From: an uncultured Acidimicrobiales bacterium
GTDB lineage: Bacteria; Actinomycetota; Acidimicrobiia; Acidimicrobiales; VFJN01
NCBI GenBank assembly: GCA_963842395.1
Contig: CAWJGJ010000002.1
Span: 1,397,720 to 1,461,719, forward strand
Length of the DNA: 64,000 nt
Direction: 5' to 3'
Under the pieces are notes generated by a model that worked only from the letters and a program-made list of their open reading frames with translations, was not told the DNA's origin and did no database searches. The position numbers were made by a program, and so were the translations under genes. Every line of letters begins with the position of its first letter. Position 1 is the stretch's first letter. This document shows positions 4,906-36,382 of this stretch, piece by piece.

Positions 4906-4969
4906 CGGGTCGCACCGCCGACGGACAGCCCGGCTGACTTTCGCCTTCCGGTAGCGCCAATCTGGAGGC

Positions 4970-7876
4970 ATGGGCGCAACCAGGCGGGTGCTCGAACACA
5001 AGGTCACGGTGCCGCCGACCGCGGGCGCCATCGCCCGGCCCGAGCTGGTGGCTCGCTCGCTCGCATGCCAGGTCGCGTTGCTCACGGCGCCCGCCGGGCA
5101 CGGCAAGACCTACCTGGCGGCCCAGATCGCCGCCGCGAGCGGCGGCCCGACCGCGTGGTTCAGCGCCGACGACCTCGACCAGGACACCCTCGGGGTGGTC
5201 GAGCACATGCTCGCGGCACTGGCGCGCGCCTGGCCCGACGCCGCCAGCCCCTCCGCGACGCTGACCGACGACGCTGCCGCGCTCCCCGTGCTGGCCGCGA
5301 CGATCGAAACTCTGGCCGGGCCGGGTTGCCTGGTGCTCGACAACGCCCACCTCGTCGGCCGGGCCCTGCTCGACGCCGTCGTCGGTGCGGTGCTCGCGGC
5401 CCTGCCCTCCCCCTGCCACCTGGTCGTGTGCACGCGCGACGCCGTGACGCCCGCGCTCCTCGAAGCCGAGGGAGCCCGCCGGGCGGTGATCGTCGGAGCC
5501 GGCGAGCTGGCCTTCACCGTCGACGAGTGCGCAACGATCCGCGGCGTCGATGCCGGCGAGGCGCGCGAGCGGCATCGCCGCACGGGCGGGTGGCCGCTGG
5601 CGGTGGCGCTGGCGAGCGGGACCTCCGGCGCGGACGGCGGCCGCCTCGACACCCTGACCGAGCTGGCGCTCGCCGACCTGCCGGGAGCCGTCAGGCCCCG
5701 CCTGACAGCGATGGCCCGTCTGCCCGATGTCCCGGCCGGCATTCTCGTCGGCTCGGGCGTCACCGCCGTCGACGAGTTCGCCAGCGCCCATCCCGCGCTG
5801 ATCGAACGGCTCGGCGACGACCGCTATGCCGTGCGCGGCTGGCTCCGCCACTCGCTCGGCACCGAGGCCGTCGACGCCTCCGTGGTCACCGAGCTCGCCA
5901 CGCAGCTGCAGCGGTGCGGCGAGGGCGAGATGGCCGCCCATCTCCTGCTGGCCTGCGACCGCACCGGCGACGCCGTGCCTCTCATCGCCGAGCTGGCCAG
6001 GGGCGCAGCACGGGAGGGACGTTGGGAGCGGGTGAGCACGCTGGTCACCCGGATACCGGGACCAACGAGGACGATCGAGCTCGAGATCCTCGCCACACGC
6101 GCGGCCGGCGTGCTCGGCGCCCCGGACGAGCCGGCCCTCGTCGACCTCGTGAACAGGACCGAGGGCGCCGAGCCGAGCCTCTCCCTGCGGGCCCGGGAAG
6201 CCCTCGCCGACCACTACCGGATGACAGGCGACCTGCGATTCCTCGAGGTGTGCGAGGCCGCCCTCGGCGACGTCCTCACTGCTCCCGAGCCCGAGGCGCG
6301 GCTCCTGGACAGGTGGCCCCACACCGACCTCTCCTCCGACGATGCCGCCCTGGCCGGGGAGATGTTGCGCTTCTACGGCCACGGGCTGATCTTCGCCGCC
6401 GACCGCGAGGCCATCGAGCGCGGCCGACGGCTCGTCGTGGCCTCGTTCGCCGTGGCCCGGAGGGTCGGCCGCAGCGTGGTGTCCCCACAAGCCTGGTTCC
6501 TCTACGTCGAGGCGCTGCTCTATCTGCGGCCCCCTGCCGAGGTCGTCCCCCGGATCGCCGCCGTGACCCGATGGCTGCAGGACCGCGGGCACGGCGACGC
6601 CGCCCTTCGCTTGGCCGAGCTGGCCGTCCTCGAGTACGTCATGGGCGACTTCCCCGCGGCGAGCCGCACCGTGGAGATCGGCCTGGAGTGGGCAGATCTC
6701 ACCGGCTACTCGATCGCACGGCCACCGCTGCATGCCGTCGCCGCCGCCGTCGACGTCGTCCGGGGCGGTCACACCCACGATCGCGCCGCCCGGTTCGACG
6801 ACGCGCTGGTCGAGATGGCGTCGGAGCCCCGCCTGGCGTTCTACGTGCCGGCGTACGCGGCCGAGTTCGGGATCCTGCTCGTGGCACAGGGTGCGGTGGA
6901 TGCGGCGCAGCGCTACCTCACGCAGGCGGAGGAGCCGGCGCCGGCCCTCGTCAGCCACCTGTGGACCCTGCGCAGCCGCCGCCTGCGCGGCCTGCTGGAT
7001 CTGTCGGGCCACCGCGCTGCCGAGGGTCGCGCCGTCCTGGAGGCGCTGCGTGAAGAAGCCGCCGCGCACGGACGGATCGCACTCGTCGAGTTGCTCGACG
7101 CCGACTTGTCCCCGGCACCGCAACCGCCAGCCACGCCGGCGACGGCGGATGCGCAGCCACTCGTGACCGTCCGGGTCCTCGGGCCCGAGCTGATCGCCAC
7201 CGTCGAGGGTGAGCCCGTCACCGGCCTGCGGGGGTACCCGGCGAAGCTGCTCGCACTGCTCGTGGCGTCGGGGGGCGTGATGACCGTGGACGCCGCGATC
7301 GAGGGGCTGTGGCCCGACGCCGATCTCGTGATCGGGCGCAACCGCCTGCACGGCATCCTCCTGCGGCTCCGGCGCACCCTCGGCCTCCCCGCCAGCGGTC
7401 CCATCACCTGCGCCGACGACCTGGTCCGGCTCAGCAGGGACGGCCCGCTCGTCGTCGACAGCTGGGCGTTCGAGCGGGCCGGCACCGCGGGCAGCCGCCT
7501 GGCGGACTGGCAGGCCGTCGCGCGCTACGGCGATGGGGTGCTCACCCACCAGTTCGCCTATGACGACGCCATCGAGGCCTACCGCCGGTCGACACGGACC
7601 GCGTTCCTACACACAGCGTCCGAGCTGCTGGCCGACCCGGCGACCGCGCCCGAGCCCGAGGCCGCCGTCGCCCTGGCCTGCGAGGTCGGGCGCCTCGCAC
7701 CCGACAACGAGTCGCTGTGCCTCCTGGCGGTCGACGTGTTGGTCCGCAACGGCCACACCGCCGAGGCGGGCGAGCTCGTCCGTCGCATCGCACATGCGCT
7801 CCACAGCCTCGGGATCGACCCGGCCGGCTTCGCCGCGGCCGCCCGCCGACTCACGGCCGATCGGCCGATGCCCTAG
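4970..7876 (+). CDS. STAND/MalT-like P-loop ATPase regulator with C-terminal SARP-type winged helix plus BTAD
   Basis: 968-aa intact ORF. N-terminal segment ARPELV...LLTAPAGHGKTYLAAQ...WFSADDLDQD resembles the MalT N-terminus, followed by a helical repeat middle. The C-terminal segment VRVLGPELIATVEGEPVTGLRGYPAKLLALLV...GLWPD is OmpR/SARP-like and is followed by a BTAD-like helical region. Confidence 0.7.
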   Translation: MGATRRVLEHKVTVPPTAGAIARPELVARSLACQVALLTAPAGHGKTYLAAQIAAASGGPTAWFSADDLDQDTLGVVEHMLAALARAWPDAASPSATLTDDAAALPVLAATIETLAGPGCLVLDNAHLVGRALLDAVVGAVLAALPSPCHLVVCTRDAVTPALLEAEGARRAVIVGAGELAFTVDECATIRGVDAGEARERHRRTGGWPLAVALASGTSGADGGRLDTLTELALADLPGAVRPRLTAMARLPDVPAGILVGSGVTAVDEFASAHPALIERLGDDRYAVRGWLRHSLGTEAVDASVVTELATQLQRCGEGEMAAHLLLACDRTGDAVPLIAELARGAAREGRWERVSTLVTRIPGPTRTIELEILATRAAGVLGAPDEPALVDLVNRTEGAEPSLSLRAREALADHYRMTGDLRFLEVCEAALGDVLTAPEPEARLLDRWPHTDLSSDDAALAGEMLRFYGHGLIFAADREAIERGRRLVVASFAVARRVGRSVVSPQAWFLYVEALLYLRPPAEVVPRIAAVTRWLQDRGHGDAALRLAELAVLEYVMGDFPAASRTVEIGLEWADLTGYSIARPPLHAVAAAVDVVRGGHTHDRAARFDDALVEMASEPRLAFYVPAYAAEFGILLVAQGAVDAAQRYLTQAEEPAPALVSHLWTLRSRRLRGLLDLSGHRAAEGRAVLEALREEAAAHGRIALVELLDADLSPAPQPPATPATADAQPLVTVRVLGPELIATVEGEPVTGLRGYPAKLLALLVASGGVMTVDAAIEGLWPDADLVIGRNRLHGILLRLRRTLGLPASGPITCADDLVRLSRDGPLVVDSWAFERAGTAGSRLADWQAVARYGDGVLTHQFAYDDAIEAYRRSTRTAFLHTASELLADPATAPEPEAAVALACEVGRLAPDNESLCLLAVDVLVRNGHTAEAGELVRRIAHALHSLGIDPAGFAAAARRLTADRPMP

Positions 7877-8897: not shown

Positions 8898-10256
8898 CTA
8901 GAGGCTGGCGATCAGGCGGTCGACCCGCTCGTCGTGCGAGCGGAGGGGGTCGTTGCAGAGGACCGTGCGCTGCGCTTGGTCGTTGAGCTTCAGGTGGACC
9001 CAGTCGACGGTGTAGTCGCGCTTGCGTTCCTTGGCCCGACGGATGAATTCGCCCCGGAGGCGGGCCCGGGTGGTCTGGGGTGGGACCTCGACGGCCTCGT
9101 CGATCGCCTCGTCGCTGGCCACCCGCTCGACCAGCCCGCGCTCCTGCATCTTGTAGAAGAGGCCCCGGCGTCGGTCGATGTCGTGGTACTGCAGGTCGAT
9201 CAGCGCCACCCGTGGGTCCGACAGCGGCAGCTCGTGCCGGGCGCTGTACGACTCGATCAGCTTGTGTTTGATCACCCAGTCGACCTCACGGTCGAGCGAC
9301 AGCGGGTCGTCGGCGAGACGGGTGAGGCAGTGCTCCCACATCTGCAGCGCCTGGGCCTCCAGCGGCGAGAGGTCGCGGGTCTCGGCGTAGCGCTGCGCTC
9401 GCTCCAGGTACTCGGACTGGATATCGAGCGCGGAGGCCTCCCGCCCGTTCGCCAGTCGGACCAGGCGCTTCATCGTCGGATCGTGGCTGATCTCGCGGAT
9501 GGCCCGAATCGGGTTCTCGAGGGTCATGTCCCGCAGCACGAACGTCGGGTCCTCGAGCATGCGCAGCAGGATCGACGTCGCCCCCACCTTGAGGAACGTC
9601 GCGTACTCGCTCATGTTCGAGTCGCCCACGATGACGTGCAGCCGGCGGTAGCGCTCGGCATCGGAGAGGGGCTCGTCGCGGGTGTTGATGATCGGCCGGC
9701 TGCGGGTCGTCGCCGAGGACACGCCCTCCCAGATGTGCTCGGCCCGCTGGGCGATGCAGAACATCGCACCCCGGGCCGTCTGCAGCACCTTGCCCGCCCC
9801 GGCGTAGATCTGCCGCGAGACGAAGAAGGGGATCAGAACCTCGGCGTAGTGGCCGAAGTCGTCTCGCCGCGAGGTCAGGTAGTTCTCGTGGCAGCCGTAG
9901 GAGTTCCCGGCCGAGTCCGTGTTGTTCTTGAACAGGTAGACGCTGCCCCGGATGCCCTCGTCGCGCAGCTGCTGCGACGCCGAGACCAGGAGCTGCTCGA
10001 GTATCCGCTCGCCAGCCTTGTCGTGGGTGACCAGGTCGAGGATCGAGTCGCACTCGGGCGTGGCGTACTCGGGGTGACTGCCCACGTCGAGGTACAGGCG
10101 AGCCCCGTTGGCCAGGAACACGTTGCTCGACCGGCCCCACGACACCACCCGGCGGAACACGTCGCGCGCCACCTCGTCGGGGCTGAGGCGCCGCTGCCCC
10201 CGCAGGGTGAACGTGATCCCGTACTCGTTCTCGAGCCCAAAGATCCGCCGCTCCAT
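8898..10256 (-). CDS. pafA: Pup--protein ligase PafA
   Basis: 452-aa ORF. It is colinear with my recollection of mycobacterial PafA: GLENEYG..., [115 protein letters not shown]. Confidence 0.93.
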
Positions 10257-10382
10257 GACGGCAACCTACCGCCGCCCACGGCGCTCCCTCGGGCCAGGCA
10301 AAGTCCGGTGTCCCAACGGGCGCCGCCACGGTCTCGGCCGAGCTCCGGCCATCAGACACGATGGAACAGGCGGGCGGCCAGC

Positions 10383-10823
10383 CTACGGCGGTGAATCCCC
10401 CTGGGTTGGTTCGAGGCTCGCGCGTGTCGGCACCTGGCCGGCAGTTGTGTCGTGCGGTGGCGACACGGCGCAGCGCACGCAGCATGTGGTTCCTGGCAGG
10501 GCCTGTAGGCGCGGCCAACCGATCGGCTGCCCGCATCGTCGGCAGGCGCCGTAGCCCTCGTCGTCGATCTCGGTGAGGGCCCGGTCGAGCTGGGTCAGCC
10601 GGGCCTGAGCCTCCGCCGCCAGCGAGGCGACCTGCGCGCGCTCGTAGGCCGTCGTCCCCTCAGGGTCGTGCTCGTCGTCTGGCGGCTCGAGGTCGGCAGC
10701 ATCGACCATCTCGTCGAACGTGCGCTCCAGCGACGACAGCCGCTGCTGCGCCCGAGCCCGCTCGACCACCACTAGCTCACGCAGCGCCGCACGTTCGATC
10801 TCGGTCAGGGGCGCGCCAGACAC
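10383..10823 (-). CDS. TraR/DksA-family C4 zinc-finger protein
   Basis: 146-aa ORF with an N-terminal coiled-coil-like region and the motif CRRCGQPIGWPRLQALPGTTCCVRC. Confidence 0.7.
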   Translation of the reverse strand: MSGAPLTEIERAALRELVVVERARAQQRLSSLERTFDEMVDAADLEPPDDEHDPEGTTAYERAQVASLAAEAQARLTQLDRALTEIDDEGYGACRRCGQPIGWPRLQALPGTTCCVRCAVSPPHDTTAGQVPTRASLEPTQGDSPP

Positions 10824-10983
10824 CCCTGCTGTCTACCGCCGGATCCGGGCGCCGCCCCGGAGCTCCTACGAGGGCAGCGTCGCCCCCCAGTCCTCCGGAG
10901 CGATGTCGGCAACTGACTGGGTGAACGACCAGCGGTGTCCGGCAAGGTCCTCGGCAACCGCAACAGTGCGGCAAAGGAATCCC

Positions 10984-11121
10984 ATCCAGCAAGATGGCGC
11001 GAGCACTGTGGTGCCGGGCCTCTACTTCGTTGGGACGCACTTCTTGCGGAAGCGGAAGTCCTCCACGCTGTTCGGCATGGGGAGGACGCTGAGATCGTCG
11101 CGGCGCGCGATCGCTGAGTGA
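10984..11121 (+). pseudogene. remnant of the C-terminus of a flavin-dependent oxidoreductase or monooxygenase
   Basis: Reads ...IQQDGASTVVPGLYFVGTHFLRKRKSSTLFGMG, and the expected continuation EDAEIVAARI appears in another frame (10935..11117). Only about 45 codons are present with no N-terminal part, in a lower-GC patch. Confidence 0.3.
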
Positions 11122-11225
11122 ATGCGGTACAGGCACTTGGAGGGCGGGGCGCGTGGTGCCAACGACCATGGGCGCACAGAATGACGGTTCGACGGTGTCG
11201 CCGAACGCCGGCCGAGGGGCGGCGC

Positions 11226-11684
11226 CTACGCCGTACGCGCGAGTCGCTGTCGCAGGGTGGCGGCAAGAGCGTTCATTTCTTCCTCCGGCACGCGGTCCTG
11301 TTCCGGAACGCCGAGGAACTGGAACACCCCGGGTCCTCGCTCGTCCTCGGCCATCGCGCTGCTGCGCGGAATGACATGCACGTGGACATGGCGGTGTTGA
11401 GGATGCTCCGCGAACTGCACGACGTAGGTCTTCTCACAGCCGACGAGCTCGTGGAGGCTCCGCGACACGTCACGGAGCAGAGGGCCGAGCGAGGACGCTT
11501 CCTCGTCATCGAGATCCGCAACTGCTGCGACGTGACGACGGGCGACCAAGACGATCCAGCCCTTCAAGCTCGTGCTGTCGCAGTGCACGACGTCCCAGTT
11601 CGCTGTTCGCACGATCGCGTCCCACAGCGGCGCGTCGCCGGCATCGCGTCGTGCAAGCAGATCACAGGTACGGCAGCCGTCCAT
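11226..11684 (-). CDS. HIT-family hydrolase
   Basis: Histidine-triad motif HRHVHVHVIPR. ATG at 11684 (MDGCRTCDLL...) fits a HIT-size protein. The upstream part of the ORF-track ORF has poor coding character. Confidence 0.8.
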   Translation of the reverse strand: MDGCRTCDLLARRDAGDAPLWDAIVRTANWDVVHCDSTSLKGWIVLVARRHVAAVADLDDEEASSLGPLLRDVSRSLHELVGCEKTYVVQFAEHPQHRHVHVHVIPRSSAMAEDERGPGVFQFLGVPEQDRVPEEEMNALAATLRQRLARTA

Positions 11685-11864
11685 CGCCGGAGTCAAACAC
11701 GGTTGTGGCGGCGGTGATCCCGATCGCCGGCTCGGACCCAGGCCACGAACGACGCAACACTTGCCACGCGGCACCAGGGCAGATCCGATCCACGGCGGAA
11801 GGTTGGACACGTCGAGCGTCAGCCGCGACAACACAGCCCGCCGGTCGGGGTCGTTCTCACGGGA

Positions 11865-12677
11865 TCAGTCGGCGCGCCGGCCGGCCCGGAGGACGGTCAG
11901 ATAGCGGCGGGATGCCCTGTCGCCCATTCGCGTGCGGATGCGCTCGGCGATGGCGTCGAGCAGCGGTTCGCGCACGTCGGGACCGAGCCTCCGGTACAGC
12001 GACGTCGAGCGGAGGAGGTCGGCGAAGCCCTCGCCGTCGAACCACTGCACCGTCGGATACCACCGAACGGTGGTGGGGCCGAACAGGGCGCCCGGGTCGC
12101 TGACCAGGCCCCAGCCCTCGTTCGTGGCGCGCACCTCCTCCTCGAGGGGCGGATCGCCCCAGTCGGGGTTGCCGGGCGAGAAGCGCTCGTGGAGATCGGC
12201 GGTCTCGGCGTAGACCTCGGGCTCGCCGGGCCGGCGGACGACGACGTTGCCGAGCAGTGCCATCCAGCCACCGGCGTGGAGCACCTCGTGCGCTCGCCGC
12301 CAACCGACCGACGGGTCGACCCAGTGCCACGACGAGGCCGCGACCAGGACGTGGAAGCGCCGACCCCGGTCGTCCCACGTCTCGAACGACGACGTCTCGA
12401 TCTCGACGTTCGTGGCGGTCGAGAGCCGTTGGCGAGCGAGCGCGGCCATGGCCGTGCCGGCCTCGACCGCGGTGACCGAGCAGCCGAGCCCGGCCAGGGA
12501 AAGCGTGGCCTGCCCGGTGCCGCAGCCGACCTCGAGCACACTCGATCGCTCGTCCATGCCGGTGATGGCGACGAGATCCGAGAACAGCTCGTCCGGGTAG
12601 GTCGGTCGCACCCGGTCGTAGAGCTCGGGCACCTCGTCGAACACCCGGCCGAGGTGACGCCGATCTGTGTCGTCCAT
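11865..12677 (-). CDS. class I SAM-dependent methyltransferase
   Basis: Motif I VLEVGCGTGQATLSLA. The start is taken at the internal ATG (MDDTDRRHLGRVFDEV), which leaves a divergent intergenic region toward 12802. The ORF-track maximum is 12773. Confidence 0.8.
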   Translation of the reverse strand: MDDTDRRHLGRVFDEVPELYDRVRPTYPDELFSDLVAITGMDERSSVLEVGCGTGQATLSLAGLGCSVTAVEAGTAMAALARQRLSTATNVEIETSSFETWDDRGRRFHVLVAASSWHWVDPSVGWRRAHEVLHAGGWMALLGNVVVRRPGEPEVYAETADLHERFSPGNPDWGDPPLEEEVRATNEGWGLVSDPGALFGPTTVRWYPTVQWFDGEGFADLLRSTSLYRRLGPDVREPLLDAIAERIRTRMGDRASRRYLTVLRAGRRAD

Positions 12678-15510: not shown

Positions 15511-16528
15511 TCAGGGGCGGTAGGCGTCGGCGACCCCGAAGCGGGCGAGGACGCCCAGCTGGTTGAGCCGGTACATCCAGATGTGCCGCTGGGCCAGGTC
15601 GAGGGCGGACGATCCGGGGACGGTGTTGTCGCCCGAGCCCTCGGCCACCCAGGCGCGGTCGAAGGGTCGCCACCCCTCGGGGAGGTCGTCGACATAGGTG
15701 GCACCGTCCTCGTACCAGTCGACGAGGCCCTGTCGCCACGACGGCGTGATGGCGTCGCGCAGGTACAGCGTCGACCACTGGTGGCGGTCCCGGCCGCCCC
15801 AGCTGGCGTGGTACAGCAGCGGGTCGAAGGCGATGACGTCGCCCGGCTCGGTGGGCAGCACCTGGCCGGGCACGTCGGGCACCTGGACGTCGAGCGAGTA
15901 GAGGTGGCCGAGCGCCGCATTGGCGTCGGGCAGCCGGTGGCTCCCGGGCAGCACCCGCAGCGCACCGTTGTCGGCCTGCAACGGCTCGAGGTAGGCGACG
16001 AACTTGACGGCGCGCACGGCGATGCCGGTGTCGTTGTGCCAGCCGGGGTGGTCGAAGTAGAGGATGCCCTGGGTGTCGCACGGCGAGGGCAGGACACCGC
16101 CGCCCACGAGCCGCTCGGCCAGGCCGACCAGCCGGCGACTGTCGACGAGCTCGACGGTGCGGGGCGCCCAGGGGCCCAGCAGGCAGGTGTAGTGGCCGGC
16201 CATGCCGCTCATGGCCGGGCGCTCGTGATACCGGTCGCCGTGGACGGCCAGCATCGTGCGGACGATCTCGTCGCGCAGCTCCTCGACCAGCGCCGGTTCG
16301 AAGAACCGCGGCAGGACCAGATAGCCGAAGCTGCGGAACCAGTCGACCTGGGCGTCGCCGGTGAAGCCGTCGAACGGGTCGGGGGTCTCGTGCTCCCGAT
16401 CGGCACGGGCGGAGAGCTCGGCGGCGAGCCCAGGATGCGACTGGCCCAGGGCGCCGGCCGCCCGGTCCAGCAGCCGCGCCAGATCGCGGTCGGGCGTGCG
16501 GCTGCATGGTCTCGATGGTCTGTGACAT
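15511..16528 (-). pseudogene. phytanoyl-CoA dioxygenase (PhyH) family protein, one apparent frameshift near the 5' end
   Basis: AGGAGG (16538-16543) lies 9 nt before ATG 16528 (MSQTIETMQPH...). After about 10 codons, coding character and PhyH-like sequence (FGYLVLPRFF, HNDTG, LRVLPGSHR) continue in the +1 frame. The gene length is 3n+1. Confidence 0.7.
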
Positions 16529-16743
16529 GGATGATGGCCTCCTGCGATCAGCGATGCGTTCCTTCCGGGGCACATCAGGTCGCAGGAGGCCCACGGGCGC
16601 TGGTCGAGCGCCCGGCCGTGGCCCATCAACATCGACGCATGGGCCGATGCTAGGCCCGCCAGGGCGGCCGGTGCCGGCGTCGCACCGGCGATGGCGAGGC
16701 CACGTCGGTGTCCCGGGGCGCGGATCGTCCTAAGGTCGGAGCG

Positions 16744-17218
16744 ATGATGAAGCCTGGCGACCTCGTATCCGACTTCGAGCTGCCCGACCAGGACGGCGCG
16801 GCGCGCACGCTGAGCGAGCTCCTGGGCACGGGCTCGGTGGTGCTGTTCTTCTATCCGGCCGCCATGACGCCCGGGTGCACCCGGGAGAGCTGCCACTTCC
16901 GCGACCTGGCGACCGAGTTCGCCGACGCCGGCGCCCAGCGGGTCGGGCATCAGCGCGGACACGGTCGACAAGCAGCGGGAGTTCGCCGACAAGCACGCGT
17001 TCGACTACCCGCTCCTCTCGGACCGGGAGGGAACCGTGGCCAAGGAGTTCGGCGTGAGCCGCTCCATGCCGCTGCTGCCGAACAAGCGGGCCACGTTCGT
17101 GATCGGCAACGACCGCAGGGTCGTCGAGGTCATCACCAGCGAGATCAACATGTCGAAGCACGCGGACCTCGCGCTCGAGGCGCTCCGAGGACAGGCCGCC
17201 ACCGGCGGACAGAGCTGA
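16744..17218 (+). pseudogene. bcp: peroxiredoxin Bcp, one apparent frameshift
   Basis: N-terminal part MMKPGDLVSDFELPDQDG...VVLFFYPAAMTPGCTRESC is in one frame. ISADTVDKQREFADKHAFDYPLLSD...KRATFVIG continues in the next frame, and the break is at about 16948 (gggCatc). Confidence 0.8.
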
Positions 17219-17229
17219 CCGCGAATCCC

Positions 17230-18887
17230 ATGAGCTCGACAGACTCGGGGGGCGACCCAAGCCCGGCCGCGGCGGCGGCGGGGACCGTGCTCGTCACGCT
17301 GGCCGCCGGGCCAGTTCCTGATGACGCTCGACAGCTCGGTGATGAACGTGTCGATCGCGACCGTCGCCAAGGACGTCGGCACGACCGTGACCGGGATCCA
17401 GACCGCGATCACGCTCTACACGCTGGTGATGGCGTCGCTGATGATCACCGGCGGCAAGATCGGCCAGATCCTCGGCCGCAAGCGGGCGTTCGCGATCGGC
17501 TGCGTGATCTACGGCTGCGGGTCGTTCATCACCGCGATCGCACCGAACCTCGGCGTGCTGATCATGGGCTGGTCGGTCCTGGAGGGCATCGGCGCGGCGC
17601 TGATCATGCCCGCCATCGTCGCGCTCGTCGCCTCCAACTTCGCCCGCGCCGAGCGGCCGCGCGCCTACGGGCTGGTGGCGTCGGCCGGCGCGATCGCGGT
17701 CGCCGCCGGCCCGCTCATCGGCGGCCTGTTCACGACCTACCTGTCGTGGCGCTGGTGTTCGCCGGCGAGGTCCTCGTGGTCGTCGGCGATCCTCGCCTCG
17801 CCCGCCGCATGGCCGACGCCGAGCCCGAGGACACGAGTGCGGCTCGACCTCGTCGGGACCGCGCTGTCGGCGCTCGGCCTCGGCCTGATCGTGTTCGGGA
17901 TCCTGCGCTCGGGCGAGTGGGGGTTCATCCAGCCCAAGCCGTCCGCCCCCGAGTGGCTCGGGCTGTCGCCGTCGATCTGGCTGATGCTCGGCGGCGGGTG
18001 TCGTGCTGTGGCTCTTCATGGGCTGGGAGAACCGGCAGCTCGACCGGGGCGCCGAGCCCCTCGTCGACCCGGCGATCCTCAGGAACCCGGTGCTGCGCGG
18101 CGGCCTCACGTCGTTCTTCTTCCAGTACCTGCTGCAGGCCGGGCTGTTCTTCGCCGTGCCGCTGTTCCTGTCGGTGGCCCTCGGGCTGTCGGCGATCGCG
18201 ACCGGCGTGCGGCTCCTGCCGCTGTCGATCACGCTGCTGCTGGCCGCCGCCGGGATCCCCAAGGTCTTCCCCCACGCGTCGCCCCGGCGGGTCGTGCAGC
18301 TCGGCTCCTGGCGCTGTTCGCCGGCATCGTCGTGATGGTCGCCGCGCTCGACGCCGGCGCCGGGCCCGAGATCGTGACCTGGCCGATGCTGCTCGCCGGC
18401 CTCGGCGTCGGCGCGCTGGCGTCCCAGCTCGGGAGCGTCACCGTGTCGTCGGTTCCCGACGAGCAGAGCGGCGAGGTCGGCGGCCTCCAGAACACGGTCA
18501 CCAACCTCGGCGCCTCGATCGGCACGGCCTTGGCCGGCGCCGTGCTCATCTCCACCCTGACCACGTCGTTCCTGACCGGCATCGAGCAGAACCCGGACGT
18601 GCCCGGACGAGGTCACCGCCAGCGCCACCGTCGAGCTGGCCGAGCGGCATCCCGTTCGTCTCCGACGCCGACCTGGAGACGGCGCTCGACGAGGCGGGCG
18701 TGCCCGCCGACCACCGCCGACGCCATCGTCGACGAGAACGCCACGGCGCGCCTCGACGGGCTGCGCGCGTCGCTGTCGGTCCTCGCGCTCATCGCCGTGC
18801 ATCGCCCTGTTCTTCACCCGCAAGCTCCCGACCGAGCAGCCCGCGTCGACCCCGGCACCCGAACCTGCGCAGCCGGTCGGTGCGTAG
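17230..18887 (+). pseudogene. MFS transporter, DHA2/EmrB-QacA type (14-TM), about 9 apparent frameshifts
   Basis: MFS-like TM segments hop between all three frames. Approximate breaks are at 17309, 17754, 17838, 17999, 18305, 18606, 18645, 18711 and 18800. The reconstructed product ends ...LFFTRKLPTEQPASTPAPEPAQPVGA* at 18887. Confidence 0.75.
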
Positions 18888-18941
18888 GTCGGCGGTCGAG
18901 TCGCCGCTGGAGCTCTGCTCGCCCGGACGGCGCCTCGGTCG

Positions 18942-19821
18942 TCAGAGGGACTTGCCGAACCAGCGCTGCGCGTACGGGTTGTCGTCGTTGTAGCGCTCGA
19001 TCGCGCGGTACCCGGCCCGCTCGTACAACGTGATCGCCTCGGACAGCACCTCGTTCGTGTCGAGCACGACCCGCCCGCACCCGAGCGCCCGCCCGCCCGC
19101 CTCGAGCCGGGCCAGCAGGCGGCGGCCCAGCCCGAGGCCCCGCCAGTCGGGATCGATCCACATCCGCTTGATCTCGGCGACGCCGTCGTCGAGCCGCCGC
19201 ACCCCGCCGCACCCGGCCGCGGCACCGTCGCTGCGCACCACCAGGAACGAGCCGCGAGGCGCGGCGCATCGCCGCGTCCCCGGCGGCACCACCCTCGTCC
19301 GGGTCGAAGCCCGCCGGGAACCGTTGCTGCAGCTCCTCGAAGTACCGGGCGACGGCCGAACGGGCGGCGAGCGACCGGGGATCGACGACGTCGAAGGCGA
19401 CGGTCGCGGCGCGCAGCAGCCGCTCAGCGGTGGCCAGGGCCGAGGCCAGCTCGGTGCGCTGGCGGTCGGACAGCGGCTCCACCAGGTCCTGTGCCAACCG
19501 CTCGGCCTGCGTGTCGACCCGCCGCAGCTCGCGCCGACCGTCGGCCGACAACCGGACAACCCGCTGGCGCCCGTCGGCGGGATCCCGTTCGACCGTCACC
19601 AGGCCCTCCTGCTCCAGCTGGCGCAGCAGCCGGCTCAGATAGCCGGAGTCGAGGCCGAGCCGGCGCCGGAGCTCGGCGACCCGCGACCCGTCGGCGCCCA
19701 CCTCGAACAGCACCCGCGACGCCCCCAGCGGACGGCCGGTGTCCAGATAGGACTCGCCGAGCACGCCGATGCGCTGGGTGTAGGACCGGTTGAACCTCCG
19801 CAGCACCGGGACGGCATCCAT
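18942..19821 (-). pseudogene. MarR-family HTH + GNAT acetyltransferase fusion, one apparent frameshift
   Basis: The N-terminal MarR-like wHTH (LGLDSGYLSRLLRQLEQEGLVTVERDPADGRQRVVRLS) is in one frame. The GNAT core (EIKRMWIDPDWRGLGLGRRLLARLE) is in another, with the break at about 19260. Confidence 0.75.
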
Positions 19822-19825
19822 AATT

Positions 19826-19841
19826 GCTGACTTTAGTCAGC
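19826..19841 (-). promoter_or_regulatory. 7-bp perfect inverted repeat (candidate MarR operator) overlapping a TANNNT -10
   Basis: The minus strand reads GCTGACTAAAGTCAGC-AATT-ATG. TAAAGT lies 8 nt before the MarR-GNAT ATG (19821), which implies a leaderless mRNA. A local low-GC patch is present. Confidence 0.45.
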
Positions 19842-20600
19842 GATGTGGCGCAAAGGAAGGCCCCGGCGGCGCCGGGAGCGTCCAGCGGACGTCGTGGAGG
19901 CGTTCGTACATCGGCAGGCACTCCTCGGCCACCGCGGCCGCCGGGCCATCCAGCTGCGGACTCGCGGGGCCGGTACTCGGCGAACCCGGTCGACCTCCAC
20001 ACGGCGTCGTACCAGTACCGGCCCCACACACCGTCGGAGTCCCGAGGACCAGGCGGCCAGGCCAGCATCGCGGCGGCGAAGTCCACGCCCGACGTGGCGG
20101 CACAGGGCGCGGAGGTAGGACTCGGGCTGGAGGAGGAAGTCGCGGCGCGTCGATCACGGGCGGCGGCGTTCCGGCCGCCACCAGCTCGTCGTACAGCTGG
20201 ATCTGCTGGGGAAGGCCGATGTCGTCGGCGGTGACGTCGGCCCGGGAGCGGACGTAGGAGGCCACCACCTCGCGGGGGTCGCGGATCAGCATCACGTTCG
20301 TGAGACCGGCGATCCAGGTCCGCTCGATGCCGGGCAGCAGGTGATGGGCCATGTGCTTCTGGTAGAAGACGCCTGATCCCGTCGGGAACCGGACCGAGCA
20401 GCGCGGCCACGACCTTGCGCCAGTCGGTCTCGCCGGCGCGCGATCACCTCGTCCCGGCCTGGATGGTCCAGCCCGGTGACGTCGAGGTAGTGGGCATACA
20501 GCGGCTCGTCGATCACCATCGTGTCGTGGCGGTTCTCCCACGACCGCATCAGCGCGGTCGAGATGTTGCGCGGGCCCGACCACACCGCCAGCCGGACCAC
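19837..20600 (-). pseudogene. sulfotransferase-like P-loop protein, about 5 apparent frameshifts
   Basis: N-terminal part is MVRLAVWSGPRNISTALMRSWENRHDTMVIDEPLYAHYL. Later segments (VFYQKHMAHHLLPG, LIRDPREVVASY, GVDFAAAMLAWPPGPRDSDGVWGRYWYDAVWRSTGF) are spread over three frames. Breaks are at about 20435, 20380, 20145, 20088 and 19955. Confidence 0.6.
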
Positions 20601-20645
20601 GGGCAGCCGGTCGCCACCGTCAGCGTCGGGCCGCCTCGGCCGACG

Positions 20646-21564
20646 TCACGCTCGACGGCGCGCCTGGTAGAGCGTCCGCAGGCGGTCATGACCGGCCGGC
20701 CGCCTGCACCGTCGCCGATCGTGCGTCCGTCGACCTCGCGGACCGGCACGATGCCGGCGAAGGTGCCGGTGACGAACGCCTCGTCGGCGCCGTACACGTC
20801 GGTCAGGCTGAAGTCGCGCTCGTAGGTCGGGATGCCGGCGTCGCGCGCCACCCGCAGCACCGTTGCCCGCGTGATGCCACCGAGGCAGAAGGCCCCCGAC
20901 GACGTCCACAGCTCGCCTCGCCGGACGACGAAGAAGTGGGTGGAGTTGCACGTGGCGACGAAGCCGTGCGGGTCGAGCATCAACGCCTCGTCGGCGCCCG
21001 CCGAGTAGGCCTGGATGCAGGCGGTGATGTCGTTGAGCTTGCTGTGGGTGTTCAGCTTGGGGTCGAGCACGTCCGGATAGGGGCGCCGCACGTGCACGGT
21101 GAACAGGCGGATCCCGGTGTCGAGCACGGCCTGACTCGGCTGCTTGTACTCGGGGATGATCACGATCGTCGCCGGCCCGACGCGTCATCCGAGGATCCTG
21201 GTACGGCGTCCGCTTCACGCCGCGGGTGACCATGAGGCGCACATGCACGCCGTCGGTCATCCCGTTGGCGCGCAGCGTCTCGTAGATCGCGTCTCGCAGG
21301 TCGTGCCGGCTGAGCCCGATGTCGAGCGCGATGGCCTTCGCGCCCTCGTAGAGGCGGTCGAGGTGCTCGTCGAGGAACACCGGGTGGCCGCCGTGGACCC
21401 GCAGCCCCTCCCACACGCCATCGCCGAGCACGAACCCCGAGTCGAAGACCGAGACCACCGCCTCGGCCCGGTGCTTGAGCTCGCCGTTCACGTAGATCGA
21501 GCACGTCCTCGTTGCGCGGATCGTCGTCGTACTCGTGCACCCCGTGGACCACCGGATCGGTCAC
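20646..21564 (-). pseudogene. class IV (branched-chain/D-amino-acid type) aminotransferase, about 3 apparent frameshifts
   Basis: GAGGAGG lies 6 nt before GTG 21564 (MTDPVVHGVHEYDDDPRNEDVL). The sequence then runs IYVNGELKHRAEAVVSVFDSGFVLGDGVWEGLRV, ...IIPEYKQP...HSKLNDITACIQA...AFCLGGITR, and ends ...RLRTLYQARRRA*. Breaks are at about 21495, 21183 and 20695. Confidence 0.75.
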
Positions 21565-24167: not shown

Positions 24168-25270
24168 TCAGGGCCCGGGCAGTGGCGGCAGGTGCGCCAT
24201 CAGCGCCTGCAGGAGCAGCGTCTCGTTGGGGTAGCGCTGCAGCGACACGGCGGCGGCGTCGATGCGGGTCGCCGCCTCGACGAACGAGCGCCGGGCGCCC
24301 CGCTCGACGAGGGCGTCGCGGTAGGCCGCCGCCAGCGTGGCCAGGCCGAAGCGCAGCTCGGCGGTGCGGAACCGGCGCACCTCGCGCTTGTGGCGGGCCT
24401 CGAGGTCCTTCTTGCCCGACCCCCGCAGCCCGTACTGCTCGATCTGCTCGTCGAGCTCGGCGACCTCGGCCGCCTGGACCTGCTGCAGCGGCCCCAACGC
24501 CTCGGCGATCATGGCCTGCAGCTCGGCCACCACGGCGGCCGCCCGATGGCCCGTGCCGTCGAGCCGGCCGGGCGCCTCGCGCCAGGCCTGGTGGCGCAGG
24601 GCCAGGCGATCGTCGCTGGCCAGGGTGCGGGCGCGGTCGAGGTCCCCGCCCGCGGCCGCAGCCGCGGCGGAGGCCCGCTCGGCGTCGACGCCCTCGGCCA
24701 CGAGGCGCTCGGCCACCACCTCGGCCGGCAACGCCTGCAGCTCGATCCGCACGCACCGGCTGGCGATCGTGACCAGCTCCGGTACGACCTCGGTCGCCGA
24801 CAGCACGAAGACGGTCGACGCCGGCGGCTCCTCCACGGTCTTGAGGAGGTAGCCCGCCGCCTCGTCCTCCATGTCCTCGCAACCGTCCGCCACGACCACC
24901 TTGCGGGTGCCCTCGACCGGAGCCAGCGTGGCGTGGCGCACCACCCGCTCGGCGTCGCCCTTGCGGAAGGTGTTGCCCTCGGGCTCGACCACCCGCAGGT
25001 CCGGGTGCTGCTCGGCCAGGGCCAGGCGCAGGTGGCGGCGCCGCTCGTCGTCGTCTCGGCCCCGGCGGCCAGCAGCAGGGCGGCGAAGCCCCGGGCCACC
25101 GCCCGGGCGCCCGACCCCGCCGGCCCCACCAGCAGGTAGGCGTGCACCGGCCCGCGCGCCGCCGCCGTGAGCTGGCGGATCGCCCCGGCCTGGCCCACGA
25201 CCTGGTGCCACGGATCGTCGGGGTCGACGCCCGGGTGGTGGTCGACGGTGGCGGGCCCGGTCGGTGTCAC
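24168..25270 (-). pseudogene. holB: DNA polymerase III subunit delta-prime, one apparent frameshift
   Basis: The N-terminal part (HAYLLVGPAGSGARAVARGFAALLLA) is in one frame. The rest (...KVVVADGCEDMEDEAAGYLLKTVEEPPASTVFVLSA...ASRCVRIEL) is in another, with the break in a C4/G4 run at about 25060. It sits in the conserved topA-tmk-holB order. Confidence 0.8.
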
Positions 25271-25297
25271 GGCGCCAGTCTCGCGTCGCCGCAGGGC

Positions 25298-25978
25298 CTA
25301 CGGGTTCGGCGTGTCGCCGTTGGCGCCGTTGGTCTCGTGACGGGATGGAACGGCCGAGCCGGGCTCCGGCGGTGCCGCCAGGTCCGGGAGGCGGGTGGTG
25401 ACCGCGGACCAGACGGCCGCCTCGACCTCCTCGGGCGGGGCCGAGCCGTCGACGGTCACCCACCGGTTGGCGTCCGCGCTGGCCAGCGCCCGGTAGCCGC
25501 GCGCCACCCGGTCGTGGAAGCGGTCGCCCGCCGCCTCCATGCGGTCGAGCTTCCCGCCCGCGCGGGCCGCCGACACCTCGCGGGGCACGTCCAGCAGCAC
25601 GACGAGGTCGGGCCACAGCCCGCCGGCCGCCCAGTCCGACAGGCGACGCAGCTCCGCGACCGGCAGGCCCCGCCCGTGACCCTGGTAGGCGAGCGAGGAG
25701 CCGATGTAGCGGTCGGACACGACGTGGCGCCCCGCCGCCAGCGCGGGGCGAACCACCTCGGCGACGTGTTGCGCCCGGTCCGCGGCCATGAGCAGTGCCT
25801 CGGCCCGGTCGTCGAGGCCGGTCGTCCGGGCGTCGAGCAGCAGGCCGCGCAGGGCGGTCCCGACGGTCGTGCCCCCTGGCTCCCGCGTGTGGAGCGCGCC
25901 GAGGCGGCGCGCCAGCCGGGCCGACTGCGTGGACTTGCCGCTGGCGTCGCCGCCCTCGAACACGATGAACCGGGCCAC
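25298..25978 (-). CDS. tmk: dTMP (thymidylate) kinase
   Basis: GTG start at 25978. Motifs FIVFEGGDASGKSTQ P-loop, TREPGGT and DRY are present. 226 aa. The ORF-track ORF extends far upstream as a wrong-frame overlap of topA. Confidence 0.9.
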   Translation of the reverse strand: MARFIVFEGGDASGKSTQSARLARRLGALHTREPGGTTVGTALRGLLLDARTTGLDDRAEALLMAADRAQHVAEVVRPALAAGRHVVSDRYIGSSLAYQGHGRGLPVAELRRLSDWAAGGLWPDLVVLLDVPREVSAARAGGKLDRMEAAGDRFHDRVARGYRALASADANRWVTVDGSAPPEEVEAAVWSAVTTRLPDLAAPPEPGSAVPSRHETNGANGDTPNP

Positions 25979-31558: not shown

Positions 31559-31600
31559 GGGGCGATCCCCGATGCCCTCCCCGTCACCTGGGCGTACGTT
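31559..31600 (+). promoter_or_regulatory. GATCCCC-box promoter, copy 3
   Basis: GGGGCGATCCCCGATG (31559-31574), 20 nt, then TACGTT (31595-31600). An additional GATCCCC lies at 31511-31517. Confidence 0.55.
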
Positions 31601-31656
31601 GTCGCCATGGCCTCCCGGATGCGGGTGGAGGTCCCGAGCACCAGGAGTGCCCCGAA

Positions 31657-32878: not shown

Positions 32879-32994
32879 TCGCACTCATTGACGCACCGGC
32901 AACGGGGCCCCGGTTCACTGCTGGGGTCCCGTGCCGCGTGTACTGACACCCACTCGATCCGCGTTAGCGTTGCCGGGTACAAGGAGCTGCGCAC

Positions 32995-34901
32995 ATGGCG
33001 GGGAACCCCAACGCCGGCCAGAGGTCGGCGACCGTCCAACAGGCACTGTCCGTAGTCGACCTCGGGCGACAGGCGAGCACGGCGTACGACCGTCCCGACC
33101 TGGCCAGCCGGCTCGCGTTCACGCGCAAGCGCCTCGCCGACCCCGCCTTCCACGTGTTCGTCATCGGCGAGTTCAAGCAGGGCAAGTCGTCGCTGGTCAA
33201 CGCCCTGCTCAACGCACCCGTGTGCCCCGTCGACGACGACATCGCCACGTCGGTGCCCACCGCCATCCGCTACGGCGACCCGCCCGCCGCGGCCGTCCTG
33301 TTCGACCCGGGTGGCGACCTGTCCGATCCCACCCGCGAGCCGATCCGCGAGACCATCCCGGTCGACCAGGTCGCCCGCTACGTCACCGAGACGGCCGAGG
33401 TCGCCGGCGAGCGCCGGGTCAGCTCGGTCGAGGTGTCCCTGCCCCGCAAGCTGCTCAGCGACGGGCTCGTGATCGTCGACACCCCCGGCGTCGGGGGACT
33501 GGGCTCGGCCCACAGCGCCGCCACCATCGGGGCGCTGCCCCTGGCGGACGCCGTGGTGTTCGTCTCCGACGCCAGCCAGGAGTTCACCGGTCCCGAGCTG
33601 GATTTCCTGCAGACCGCCCGCCGCATGTGCCCCAACGTGGTGTGCGTGCTCACCAAGACCGACTTCTACCCGTCGTGGCGCAAGATCCGCGACCTCAACG
33701 TCGACCACCTGGCCCGCCAGGGGGTCCCGGCCGAGATCCTGTGCGTGTCGTCCTCGCTGCGGGTGCACGCCCTGCGGGCCAACGACCGCGAGCTCAACCG
33801 CGAGTCGGGCTTCCCCGAGCTGGCGGGGTACCTCCAGAACAAGATCGCCGGCAACGCCGAGAAGCTGAGCGTGCGGTCGGCCGTGAACGACGTCGTCGCC
33901 GTCGCCTCTCTGCTCGAGAGCCAGTTCCGCAGCGAGCGCGATGCCCTCGACAACCCCGAGGAAGCCCAGCGGGTGGTCGACAACCTCACCGAGCTCAAGG
34001 CCAAGGCCGAGCGGCTGAAGAGCGGCGTGTCGAAGTGGCAGCAGACGCTCACCGACGGCGTGGTCGACCTGCAGGCCGACGTCGACCACGACCTGCGGGC
34101 CCGGGTCCGGCAGGTGTCCCGCATGTCCGACGAAGCGATCGAGGCCAGCGACCCGGCGGAGACCTGGGAGGAGTTCGAGCCGTGGCTCACCCGGCGGGTC
34201 ACCGAGGAGGTCGTCCACAACTACACCTTCCTCCACGCCGCGCGCCGACGGCCTGATCGAGCGCGTGAGCGAGCACTTCGGCGAGGACGGCGCGGACATC
34301 GTCATCGACCTCGACGTCGCCAACCCCAGGGAGGTGCTGGGGACGGTCGACGCCAACACCGACGTCGAGCTCAGGAAGATGGGCGTCGGTGGGCAGAGCC
34401 TGACCATGCTGAAGGGCAGCTACGGCGGCATCATCATGTTCAGCGTGCTGGGGAGCATGGCCGGCCTGGCGGTCGGCGCGGTCGGCGGTCCCGCCGCGAT
34501 GATGGTCGGCCTCCTCATGGGCCGCTCGGCGCTGAAGGGCGAGAAGCAGCGCCAGCTCGCGAATCGCCGCGCCCAGGCCCGGCAGGCCGTACGTAAGTAC
34601 ACCGACGAGGTGAGCTTCGTCGTGGGCAAGGACTCCCGCGACACGCTGCGCCGCACCCAACGCCGCATGCGCGACTTCTTCGCGGCCCGAGCCGAGGAGC
34701 TGCACCGGTCGACCACGAGCGCGCTCGCCGCCGCCCAGCAGGCGGTGAAGTCCGACGCCTCCAGCCGCCAGAAGCGGCTGCGCGACGTCGACGCCGAGCT
34801 GAAGCGCATCGCGGTGCTGCGCGACCGGGCCTACGCGCTCGGCGCCCGAGCTCAAGGCCGGCGACAAGGCGGCCGGCGCCGCCGGGGGTGGCTCGTCGTG
34901 A
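32995..34901 (+). pseudogene. IniA-like bacterial dynamin-like GTPase, two apparent frameshifts
   Basis: AAGGAG SD. G1 motif VIGEFKQGKSSLVNAL and G3 motif VDTPGVGG are present. A hydrophobic paddle GGIIMFSVLGSMAGLAVGAVGGPAAMMVGLLMG follows. Breaks are at about 34245 and 34846. The reconstructed tail is ...APELKAGDKAAGAAGGGSS*, about 634 aa (M. tuberculosis IniA is about 640 aa, from memory). Confidence 0.75.
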
Positions 34902-36382
34902 ACGCTCGCACCAGCTCGACGCTGCTGGCCAGCGTGCGGCACCTGCTGGAGCAGGGCACGCAGTCTTACGCGCACGTGCCCGAGGCCCGGCAGCGCCTCC
35001 AGGCAGTGCTCGACCGGCTCGACGAGCCGCTGCGGGTCGCCATCGCCGGCAAGGTCAAGGCCGGCAAGTCCACGCTGCTCAACGCCCTGGTGGGCGAGGA
35101 GCTGGCACCCACCGACGCCGGCGAGTGCACCCGCATCGTCACCTGGTACCGCGACGGCATCACCTACCGGGCCACGCTCGAGCCCAAGCAGGGCGAGGCC
35201 CGCCAGGTGCCCTTCGCCCGCGACGGCGGGGCCATCAGCATCGATCTGGGCGGCACCGACCCCGAGGACGTGAACCGCCTGGTCATCGAGTGGCCGTCGT
35301 CGTCGCTGCGGCAGATGACGCTCATCGACACCCCGGGCATCGCCTCGCTGTCGACCGACGTGTCGGCCCGCACCATCGCCTTCCTCACCCCGGGCGAGGA
35401 CCAGGTGACCCCGGCCGACGCGGTGCTGTACCTGATGCGGCACCTGCACGCGTCCGACATCAACTTCCTCGAGGCGTTCCACGACGAGGAGTTCTCGCAG
35501 GCCACGCCGGTCAACGCCGTGGCCGTGCTGTCCCGGGCCGACGAGGTGGGCGTGGGGCGCATCGACTCGATGGCGTCGGCCCAGCGCATCGCCGCCCGCT
35601 ACCGCCACGACCCCAAGGTGCGGCGCCTGGCCCAGACCGTGGTCCCGGTCGCCGGCCTGCTGGCCCAGTCGGGGGCCACGCTGCGCGAGGCCGAGTACAA
35701 GGGCCTCGACGCCATCGCCAACGCACCCCGCGACGACGCCGAGGCGTTGTTCCTGTCGGCCGACCGGTTCGTGCAGGCCGAGACGCCCATCCCTCTCACC
35801 TCGATGGAGCGCGAGCACCTGCTCGACCGCTTCGGCCTGTTCGGCGTGCGGCTGGCCGTGGCGCTCATCCGCCAGGGCGCCGCCTCGACGGCCACCGCCC
35901 TGTCGACCGAGCTGGTGCGGCGCAGCGGCCTGGTCGAGCTGCGCGACGTGCTGCTCAGCCAGTTCGCGCAGCGGCGCGACGTGCTCAAGGCCCGGTCGGC
36001 CCTGCTGGCCCTCGAGTCGGTGTTGCACGAGTTCCCGGTGGCCGACGGCGAGGTCCTGGCCTCCGAGCTCGAGCGCATCACCTCGGCGGCCCACGAGTTC
36101 GCGGAGATCCGCCTGCTGAACGCCCTGCGGGCCAGCGGCATCAAGATCAAGCCGGCCGAGGCCGCCGAGATGGAGCGGGTGCTGGGGGCCGAGGGCAGCA
36201 GCATCCACACCCGCCTCGGCCTCAGCCCCGAAGCCGACGTGTCCGAGGTGCGGCGGGCATTGGGCAACGCCATCGGGCGGTGGCAGCGTCGGGCCGAGAG
36301 CCCTATGTCGTCGCGCGAGGTCGCGGACGCGGCCCGCGTGGTCATCCGATCCTGCGAAGGTCTGCTGGTCTCGCTGGGCTGA
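34898..36382 (+). CDS. IniC-like bacterial dynamin-like GTPase
   Basis: The GTG start overlaps the upstream stop (GTGA at 34898-34901). G1 motif IAGKVKAGKSTLLNALVG and G3 motif IDTPGIASL are present. 494 aa and intact (M. tuberculosis IniC is about 493 aa, from memory). Confidence 0.8.
   Translation: MNARTSSTLLASVRHLLEQGTQSYAHVPEARQRLQAVLDRLDEPLRVAIAGKVKAGKSTLLNALVGEELAPTDAGECTRIVTWYRDGITYRATLEPKQGEARQVPFARDGGAISIDLGGTDPEDVNRLVIEWPSSSLRQMTLIDTPGIASLSTDVSARTIAFLTPGEDQVTPADAVLYLMRHLHASDINFLEAFHDEEFSQATPVNAVAVLSRADEVGVGRIDSMASAQRIAARYRHDPKVRRLAQTVVPVAGLLAQSGATLREAEYKGLDAIANAPRDDAEALFLSADRFVQAETPIPLTSMEREHLLDRFGLFGVRLAVALIRQGAASTATALSTELVRRSGLVELRDVLLSQFAQRRDVLKARSALLALESVLHEFPVADGEVLASELERITSAAHEFAEIRLLNALRASGIKIKPAEAAEMERVLGAEGSSIHTRLGLSPEADVSEVRRALGNAIGRWQRRAESPMSSREVADAARVVIRSCEGLLVSLG

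Follow-up and report, generated by a model that had tools for sequence, protein, structure and literature searches.

Broken reading frames that accumulate in a few neighbouring genes of an assembled genome may belong to genes in decay or to a faulty consensus sequence. The distinction is of consequence for a stretch of DNA from an uncultured Acidimicrobiales bacterium, 64,000 nucleotides long and hereafter called the window, in which the first-pass annotation had described frame hops in six adjacent genes, proposing either a locally poor consensus or a genuinely decaying accessory block. The hops are found at the same coordinates, both as repeated GC3 phase switching between 16.4 and 21.6 kb and by frameshift-aware alignment, and the identities that had been given to the six genes are correct.

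Extent and nature of the indels

Frameshift-aware alignment against intact homologues places 24 single-base indels, 22 of them robust and 2 probable, between 16500 and 21498, namely 20 insertions and 4 deletions, each of exactly 1 nt; about half of them lie outside homopolymers, in agreement with the earlier remark that several do. The stretch concerned and the genes in it are the following:

16500..21498, no strand assigned: putatively error-rich block, 24 single-base indels at a mean spacing of ~220 nt in six genes on both strands
15511..16528, minus strand: PhyH-family dioxygenase, one 1-nt insertion at ~16500-16520, directly 3' of the start (MSQTIETMQP)
16744..17218, plus strand: bcp (AhpC/TSA peroxiredoxin), one 1-nt insertion (C) at 16948
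17230..18887, plus strand: DHA2-type MFS transporter, 9 robust 1-nt indels and a compensating pair
18942..19821, minus strand: MarR-GNAT fusion, one 1-nt insertion in the linker between the two domains, at 19263
19837..20600, minus strand: Sulfotransfer_5 protein (PF19798), five 1-nt insertions at 20438, 20374, 20145, 20090 and 19961
20620..21564, minus strand: class IV aminotransferase, five indels (insertions at 21498, 21182, ~20662 and ~20640, deletion at ~20688)

The four sites that had been offered as examples (16948, 18800, ~21495 and ~17754) all appear in the alignments. The number of indels per gene is 1 in PhyH, 1 in bcp, 9+2 in the MFS gene, 1 in MarR-GNAT, 5 in Sulfotransfer_5 and 5 in the aminotransferase gene, so that the earlier counts stand for PhyH, bcp, MarR-GNAT and Sulfotransfer_5, while the aminotransferase gene carries five rather than three and the MFS gene nine, possibly 11.

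In the PhyH gene, the start (MSQ/MSR...) of the homologues L078, L074, L077 and L076 lies in one frame of the window and its continuation in another; the other 1 kb of the gene is free of indels. In bcp, the match to the Pfam AhpC-TSA profile is split and changes frame within the gene, from 0 for profile positions 2-64 to +1 for positions 65-123. The MFS gene has insertions at ~17311, 17783, 17832, 17999, 18605, 18644, 18707 and 18800 and deletions at 17753, 17795 and 18299-18305, of which the compensating pair 17783/17795 was added by DNA alignments and the other nine come from protein-to-DNA alignment. In the MarR-GNAT fusion, the domains on either side of 19263, MarR upstream and GNAT downstream, are equally well conserved.

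The left edge of the block falls inside the PhyH gene and the right edge inside the aminotransferase gene, so that genes are cut rather than followed. The block was also considered as a mobile element and this was rejected: flanking repeats, tRNA genes, integrase signatures and Rfam elements were searched for as marks of such an element, and none was found.

Conservation of the repaired genes

Removal of the indels restores full-length open reading frames, and the repaired block proteins are ~91% identical to intact homologues, with no in-frame stops. In particular, 494 of 544 residues of the repaired MFS protein match its homologue (P0001), 219 of 240 residues are identical between the Sulfotransfer_5 protein and an intact orthologue of 240 aa (L070), and the repaired aminotransferase is 91% identical to intact 312-aa homologues (P0122-P0125). 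Near-invariant columns are violated at 2 of 270 positions in the repaired MFS protein (median 1, maximum 6 among the homologues) and at none of 169 in the aminotransferase. The dN/dS comparison that had been suggested for the repaired genes gives 0.14-0.23 for block genes of the window versus homologues and 0.16-0.24 for pairs of intact genes. Nonsense mutations, larger deletions, raised dN/dS and loss of invariant residues were looked for as marks of decay in the six genes, and none was found; purifying selection on the genes, once repaired, is normal.

Close homologues of the block genes (85-92% nucleotide identity) lie in non-syntenic contexts. For the MFS, aminotransferase and PhyH genes, the contexts of the best homologues are not syntenic, except for the pairing of the aminotransferase with Sulfotransfer_5, and, among the matches listed for the MarR domain in GTDB representative genomes, relatives reach at most 72% identity, without synteny.

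Comparison with a sister contig

A comparison with orthologous regions, likewise suggested at the outset, could be made with a syntenic sister contig from a different sample (ENA ERZ25039469, contig_105508; L130), from which 21 of the 24 indels of the window are missing. These include the base at 16500 in PhyH, the insertion at 16948 in bcp, where the sister contig reads gggtcggg-atcagc, and all the indels of the MFS gene. In the same five genes, the sister contig is itself frameshifted at ~41 positions, through 37 insertions and 4 deletions, which differ from those of the window.

Three sites are of equal length in both contigs: 19263 in the MarR-GNAT gene, and 20090 and 20145 in Sulfotransfer_5. 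With 24 and ~41 sites in ~5.2 kb, our own arithmetic gives ~1.3 coincidences within 3 nt expected by chance, so that the three seen are not significant (P ~0.15). They could be shared real mutations or context-specific systematic errors.

The two contigs differ by 0.25-1.3% mismatches in the flanks and by 5.75% at 17.5-21.5 kb; the mismatches favour third codon positions and therefore represent real haplotype divergence. As the contigs are ~6% apart in the block, this comparison taken by itself still leaves some room for real mutations specific to one lineage. The density of 1-nt gaps between the window and the sister contig correlates with that of mismatches (Spearman rho 0.69, p = 6e-9), hinting at either the collapse of a strain-variable segment or a locally low coverage.

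Frameshifts elsewhere in the window

The density of indels is roughly 70 times higher in the block (24 events in 5 kb, about 4.8 per kb) than in the rest of the window (2-4 events in ~59 kb, about 0.05 per kb). It had been argued that the density in the MFS gene would be unusual for uniform sequencing error, and indeed the density is too high for that: the events are clustered, and their frequency follows how far the two assemblies diverge locally. The further statement that long genes elsewhere are uninterrupted holds for the genes that had been named, but not for holB, the iniA-like gene and probably an iniB-like gene:

24168..25300, minus strand: holB (DNA polymerase III delta'), 2-nt insertion (TC on the plus strand) at ~25055-25056
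32995..34950, plus strand: iniA-like dynamin GTPase, 1-nt insertion at ~34243

The P-loop of holB, a normally essential gene, is encoded in one frame and positions 61-160 of PF13177 in the next; the two inserted bases are missing in the sister contig, which reads through in frame. The IniA structure (PDB 6J72) aligns across the junction in the iniA-like gene, over residues 21-616 of the joined protein, and the 705-aa fusion open reading frame that results has been called as a protein in the deposit. The iniB-like gene is probably also broken, at ~31885 and ~32745. At other sites where frameshifts had been suspected (4072, 13107, 13288, 14843, 47690, 50617, 54032 and 55196), a stop followed by a start shows an ordinary boundary between two genes. 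Thus, frameshifts strike irrespective of gene function, the essential holB included.

Probable origin of the indels

Taken together, the sequence comparisons make it very probable that the block is a consensus-error artefact of long-read metagenome assembly rather than a set of decaying genes, and the organism itself probably carries the six genes intact; the artefact is something that we infer rather than observe. Of the two proposals of the first-pass annotation, that of a locally poor consensus is strongly supported by the single-base, insertion-biased indels, most of them missing in the sister assembly, by purifying selection on the repaired genes and by the hit on holB. The frameshifted fragments are called proteins, without names, of the deposited contig of 1,591,189 bp (NCBI and ENA), among them a truncated 204-aa fragment of the aminotransferase; therefore, the frameshifts are present in the public assembly itself.

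The assembly is most likely of the Nanopore-only, Flye/Medaka type, as judged from similar deposits. Contigs of relatives from one and the same ENA accession series are named in the Flye style ('contig_N') and likewise lack protein names, and a published pipeline for such metagenome-assembled genomes (MAGs) is Nanopore-only, with metaFlye and one Medaka round (PMC12313526). It is documented that indels in a consensus can produce frameshifts and that they depend on coverage (PMC9262707). In such a process, the assembler or polisher would have put out spurious single bases, mostly insertions, every ~220 nt, each shifting the reading frame of a probably intact gene. The clustering would most likely stem from variation of the segment among strains of the population that was sampled: reads of haplotypes differing by a few percent would have been piled together, or the effective coverage would have been low, leading to local collapse of the consensus, while the nearly invariant flanks would have been called cleanly.

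How the extra bases came to be chosen is a separate matter. In 16 of 18 insertions, the extra base could be a third codon position written twice, where two-thirds would be expected (p ~0.03), and mismatches to the sister contig show no enrichment within 1-3 nt of the indels. That each insertion is a second SNP allele written beside the first is, thus, an unproven and weakly supported proposal. The strong insertion bias of the block also counts against an artefact, when set against the textbook error profile of Nanopore reads, which consists of homopolymer deletions.

Alternative explanations

If the indels were instead the result of recent pseudogenisation, a block serving detoxification, efflux, acetylation and amino-acid modification would no longer be needed and would be gathering real frameshifts in this strain. 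The genes do look accessory, their close homologues (at the 85-92% identity given above) being found in non-syntenic contexts, the block is the diverging part of two otherwise near-identical contigs, and the sister contig is equal in length at three of the indel sites. Nevertheless, such decay is very improbable. Nonsense mutations, indels of more than 1 nt and large deletions are all absent, and dN/dS and the conservation of invariant residues are indistinguishable from those of intact homologues. Over a span of real neutral evolution sufficient for 24 indels, random substitutions in the order of a hundred would be expected as well, by a rough estimate. The 20:4 ratio of insertions to deletions is the opposite of the deletional bias of bacterial pseudogenes, which Mira, Ochman and Moran reportedly described in 2001. 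Furthermore, 21 of the indels are missing from the sister contig, whose own ~41 are similar in kind but different, the edges of the block run through genes, and holB is broken likewise. The proposal of a genuinely decaying accessory block is, therefore, not supported.

A compromise, in which most indels are artefacts and those at 19263, 20090 and 20145 are real, making MarR-GNAT and Sulfotransfer_5 true pseudogenes in the population, draws on the equal length of both assemblies at these sites and on the frame shift of the sister contig at the equivalent position of the MarR-GNAT linker (AMR/SPRG). It is given as little credence as wholesale decay, because the coincidences do not significantly exceed chance, the GNAT domain past 19263 is conserved no less than the MarR domain, and context-specific systematic errors would recur in two assemblies from the same pipeline. 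The broader claim that the indels are real, in part or in full, as a case of unusually fast, insertion-biased frameshift decay in a strain-variable accessory segment of a soil Acidimicrobiia population, with inactivation of MarR-GNAT and Sulfotransfer_5 by the three coincident sites as its minimal version, is likewise very improbable. Finally, programmed ribosomal frameshifting or transcriptional slippage might be imagined to restore the frames, but nothing was found in favour of this: the 24 sites, spread over both strands and six genes unrelated to each other, have no slippery motif or sequence context in common, the extra bases are missing from homologues, including the closest relative, and no Rfam elements were found, so that recoding can be dismissed for practical purposes.

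Significance

The consensus artefact, as the preferred reading, makes the block a warning about data quality, and no new biology is revealed by it. The deposit shows six genes, holB and the iniA-like gene as fragments, and pseudogene counts, inferences on loss of function and protein catalogues drawn from this MAG would mislead. It would also provide an example of how the residual indels of Nanopore-only metagenome assemblies can cluster in a short strain-variable stretch, instead of being evenly spread, and can be insertion-biased and lie outside homopolymers.

Comparison with known systems

As in the pseudogene clusters of Mycobacterium leprae and of recent host-restricted pathogens, adjacent genes here carry multiple frameshifts. 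Real pseudogenes, however, are marked by nonsense mutations, indels of mixed size biased towards deletion and relaxed dN/dS, and part of their mutations are shared with relatives. The first three marks are not seen in the genes of the block, and for the fourth at most the three sites of equal length come into question. Collapsed strain variation (microdiversity) is a closer parallel in that the error-rich stretch coincides with a segment ~6% apart in contigs that are otherwise at least 99% identical and in that gap density tracks mismatch density, the presence of both haplotypes in the sample of the window being presumed; the model in which both alleles are written into the consensus is without clear support here.

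The fragmentation of genes by indels in long-read assemblies is known as the 'IDEEL' problem and is addressed by tools such as proovframe. Its dependence on coverage and microdiversity has been described (PMC9262707; bioRxiv 10.1101/2021.08.23.457338). Unlike the usual Nanopore pattern, which is associated with homopolymers and more even, the putative errors of the block are extremely clustered, insertion-biased and often outside homopolymers. In the other respects considered, the block resembles the residual consensus indels of Nanopore or PacBio CLR assemblies: single-base indels split conserved open reading frames, the fragments are deposited as separate proteins, and the indels are missing from independent assemblies.

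Indel inventory and gene context

Plots of G+C content by codon phase and a seven-state Viterbi segmentation revealed numerous short same-strand switches of reading frame at 16.4-21.6 kb of the window, the G+C content of which is about 72% with a strong GC3 coding signal, and the closest protein relatives of which belong to Acidimicrobiales/Acidimicrobiia MAGs. Indels were called with a custom protein-to-DNA aligner permitting 1-nt frameshifts, with intact homologues from a large protein database and from related contigs as queries.

Single-base indels in six adjacent genes (window coordinates)
15511-16528, minus strand: PhyH; one indel at about 16500, directly after the start codon
16744-17218, plus strand: bcp; one indel at 16948, positions 2-64 of the AhpC-TSA profile lying in one frame and 65-123 in the next
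17230-18887, plus strand: MFS; nine robust indels and a compensating pair (17783/17795) from DNA alignments
18942-19821, minus strand: MarR-GNAT; one indel at 19263
19837-20600, minus strand: Sulfotransfer_5; five indels
20620-21564, minus strand: class IV aminotransferase; five indels
19837-21564, minus strand: the adjacent aminotransferase/Sulfotransfer_5 pair (10001-11679 on the related metagenome contig L070)

The block (16500-21498) thus contains 22 robust and two probable events, namely 20 insertions and four deletions, each of 1 nt and about half of them outside homopolymers. The gene identities and example sites proposed in the first-pass annotation were essentially right on frameshift-aware alignment to intact homologues, and so were its indel counts, except that the aminotransferase carries five events rather than the roughly three claimed. 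Length differences of 1 nt are also found upstream of the PhyH start, at about 16565 and 16584; the DNA of this region (16530-16600; e.g. the translated string ERIADRRR) is conserved in the related contigs L074 and L076-L078 and, judged from sequence, may be a leader or regulatory site.

The aminotransferase and Sulfotransfer_5 (PF19798) genes form a conserved adjacent pair on several Acidimicrobiales contigs with otherwise unrelated flanks. Close homologues of the other block genes occur in unrelated contexts, as would fit accessory roles. The MFS family is unusually conserved (81-90% identity over about 540 aa in at least 120 database clusters, among them one protein named as from Angustibacter luteus), and its differing genomic contexts hint at horizontal spread. 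Neither tRNA genes, Rfam elements nor flanking repeats were found as mobile-element marks of the block.

Consensus error versus gene decay

The lipase adjoining the block clusters with a protein of identical length on a 58.6-kb contig from another sample and ENA assembly (L130; ERZ25039469 contig_105508), which is syntenic with the window at 12.3-34.1 kb (12309-34123) and allowed the comparison with a closely related region that the first-pass annotation had called for. In pairwise alignment, 21 of the 24 indels are absent from L130, including all four that had been singled out as examples, and L130 is itself frameshifted at about 41 different positions in the same five genes, with an insertion bias of 37:4. 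That the same conserved genes carry mostly different sets of 1-nt insertions in the two assemblies argues for independent consensus errors; on sequence grounds, inherited or selected mutations would not be expected to produce such a pattern. Window and L130 are of equal length at three indel sites (19263, 20090 and 20145), against about 1.3 coincidences expected by chance for 24 and about 41 sites spread over 5.2 kb. A mixed picture with these three alone being real is judged very improbable.

A decaying accessory block, the other reading initially offered, is just as improbable. When the extra bases are removed and missing ones restored, no in-frame stops are left in the MFS and aminotransferase genes, with 494 residues of the former matching an intact 544-aa homologue and the latter sharing 91% identity with intact 312-aa homologues. 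Compared with 120 homologues each, the repaired MFS protein violates two of 270 near-invariant columns (median of the homologues 1, maximum 6) and the aminotransferase none of 169. The dN/dS check that had been proposed, carried out by the Nei-Gojobori method on the MFS, aminotransferase and sulfotransferase genes of the window and their nearest DNA homologues, gave 0.14-0.23 versus 0.16-0.24 for intact-versus-intact pairs, i.e. normal purifying selection. Neither in these repaired-gene tests nor in the alignments was there any sign of relaxed selection, nonsense mutations or indels longer than 1 nt in the block. Bacterial pseudogenes, moreover, show a deletional bias, opposite to the insertion bias of the block. 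A locally degraded long-read consensus, the reading favoured here, is therefore very probably the explanation.

Strain divergence and the probable origin of the indels

The identity of L130 to the window is mosaic, at 99% or more at 15.0-16.5 and 22-24 kb (mismatches 0.25-1.3%) and about 94% at 17.5-21.5 (mismatches 5.75%) and 24-27 kb, which suggests recombination or co-existing haplotypes in the Acidimicrobiia population. The concentration of mismatches at third codon positions (e.g. 49 of 78 in MFS, 48 of 71 in the aminotransferase) indicates real haplotype differences and not noise. Across 250-bp bins, 1-nt gaps are denser where mismatches are denser (Spearman rho 0.69, p = 6e-9), so that the error-rich stretches are the strain-variable ones. 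The most likely cause is a collapsing of reads from diverged haplotypes, or a low effective coverage, over this part of the contig; a specific form of this, with both alleles of a SNP written into the consensus, is weakly supported.

Frameshifts outside the block

Long genes elsewhere had been taken as uninterrupted, and apparent frame switches there are indeed mostly ordinary gene junctions, with intact proteins including topA (927 aa), a 968-aa regulator and an 848-aa permease; holB and an iniA-like gene, however, are broken, which slightly extends the otherwise confirmed frameshift observation. In holB (DNA polymerase III delta'; 24168-25300, minus strand), the P-loop lies in one frame and positions 61-160 of Pfam DNA_pol3_delta2 in the next, owing to a 2-nt insertion at about 25055-25056 in a GAC-repeat context; L130 lacks the two bases and its frame is continuous. 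Within an iniB/iniA/iniC-like operon (31600-36382, plus strand), the gene for the iniA-like dynamin GTPase is interrupted by a frameshift at about 34243, a junction spanned by the IniA structure sequence 6J72 (joined residues 21-616), and the low-complexity iniB-like gene probably by two, at about 31885 (a Gly-codon run) and about 32745. Thus, two to four frameshifts in about 59 kb represent a low background, against which the 5-kb block, about 70 times denser, is a hot spot.

Separately, the usual GC3 signal is missing over 1.65 kb (10263-11917), where codon usage is atypical and the ORFs contain no frameshifts.

ORFs of the stretch lacking the usual GC3 signal
10383-10823, minus strand: DksA/TraR-type zinc-finger ORF
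11226-11834, minus strand: HIT-family ORF

Assembly technology and the public record

By exact look-up, the intact window proteins named above all fall on one public contig of 1,591,189 bp. The called proteins of this deposited contig include frameshifted pieces (a 204-aa aminotransferase and a 705-aa IniA-tail/IniC fusion), so that the errors sit in the public record. Related ENA assemblies of the same accession series have Flye-style contig names and split genes too; on one such contig, L068, adh_short is split into 164 + 98 aa and AMP-binding into 280 + 172 aa (within 1755-2542 and 4871-6322), and such fragmentation is seemingly common in these assemblies. Terrestrial long-read MAGs of this type have been produced by a published pipeline that uses Nanopore reads alone, with metaFlye and one round of Medaka and no short-read polishing (PMC12313526), and consensus indels that cause frameshifts, together with their dependence on coverage, have been documented (PMC9262707).
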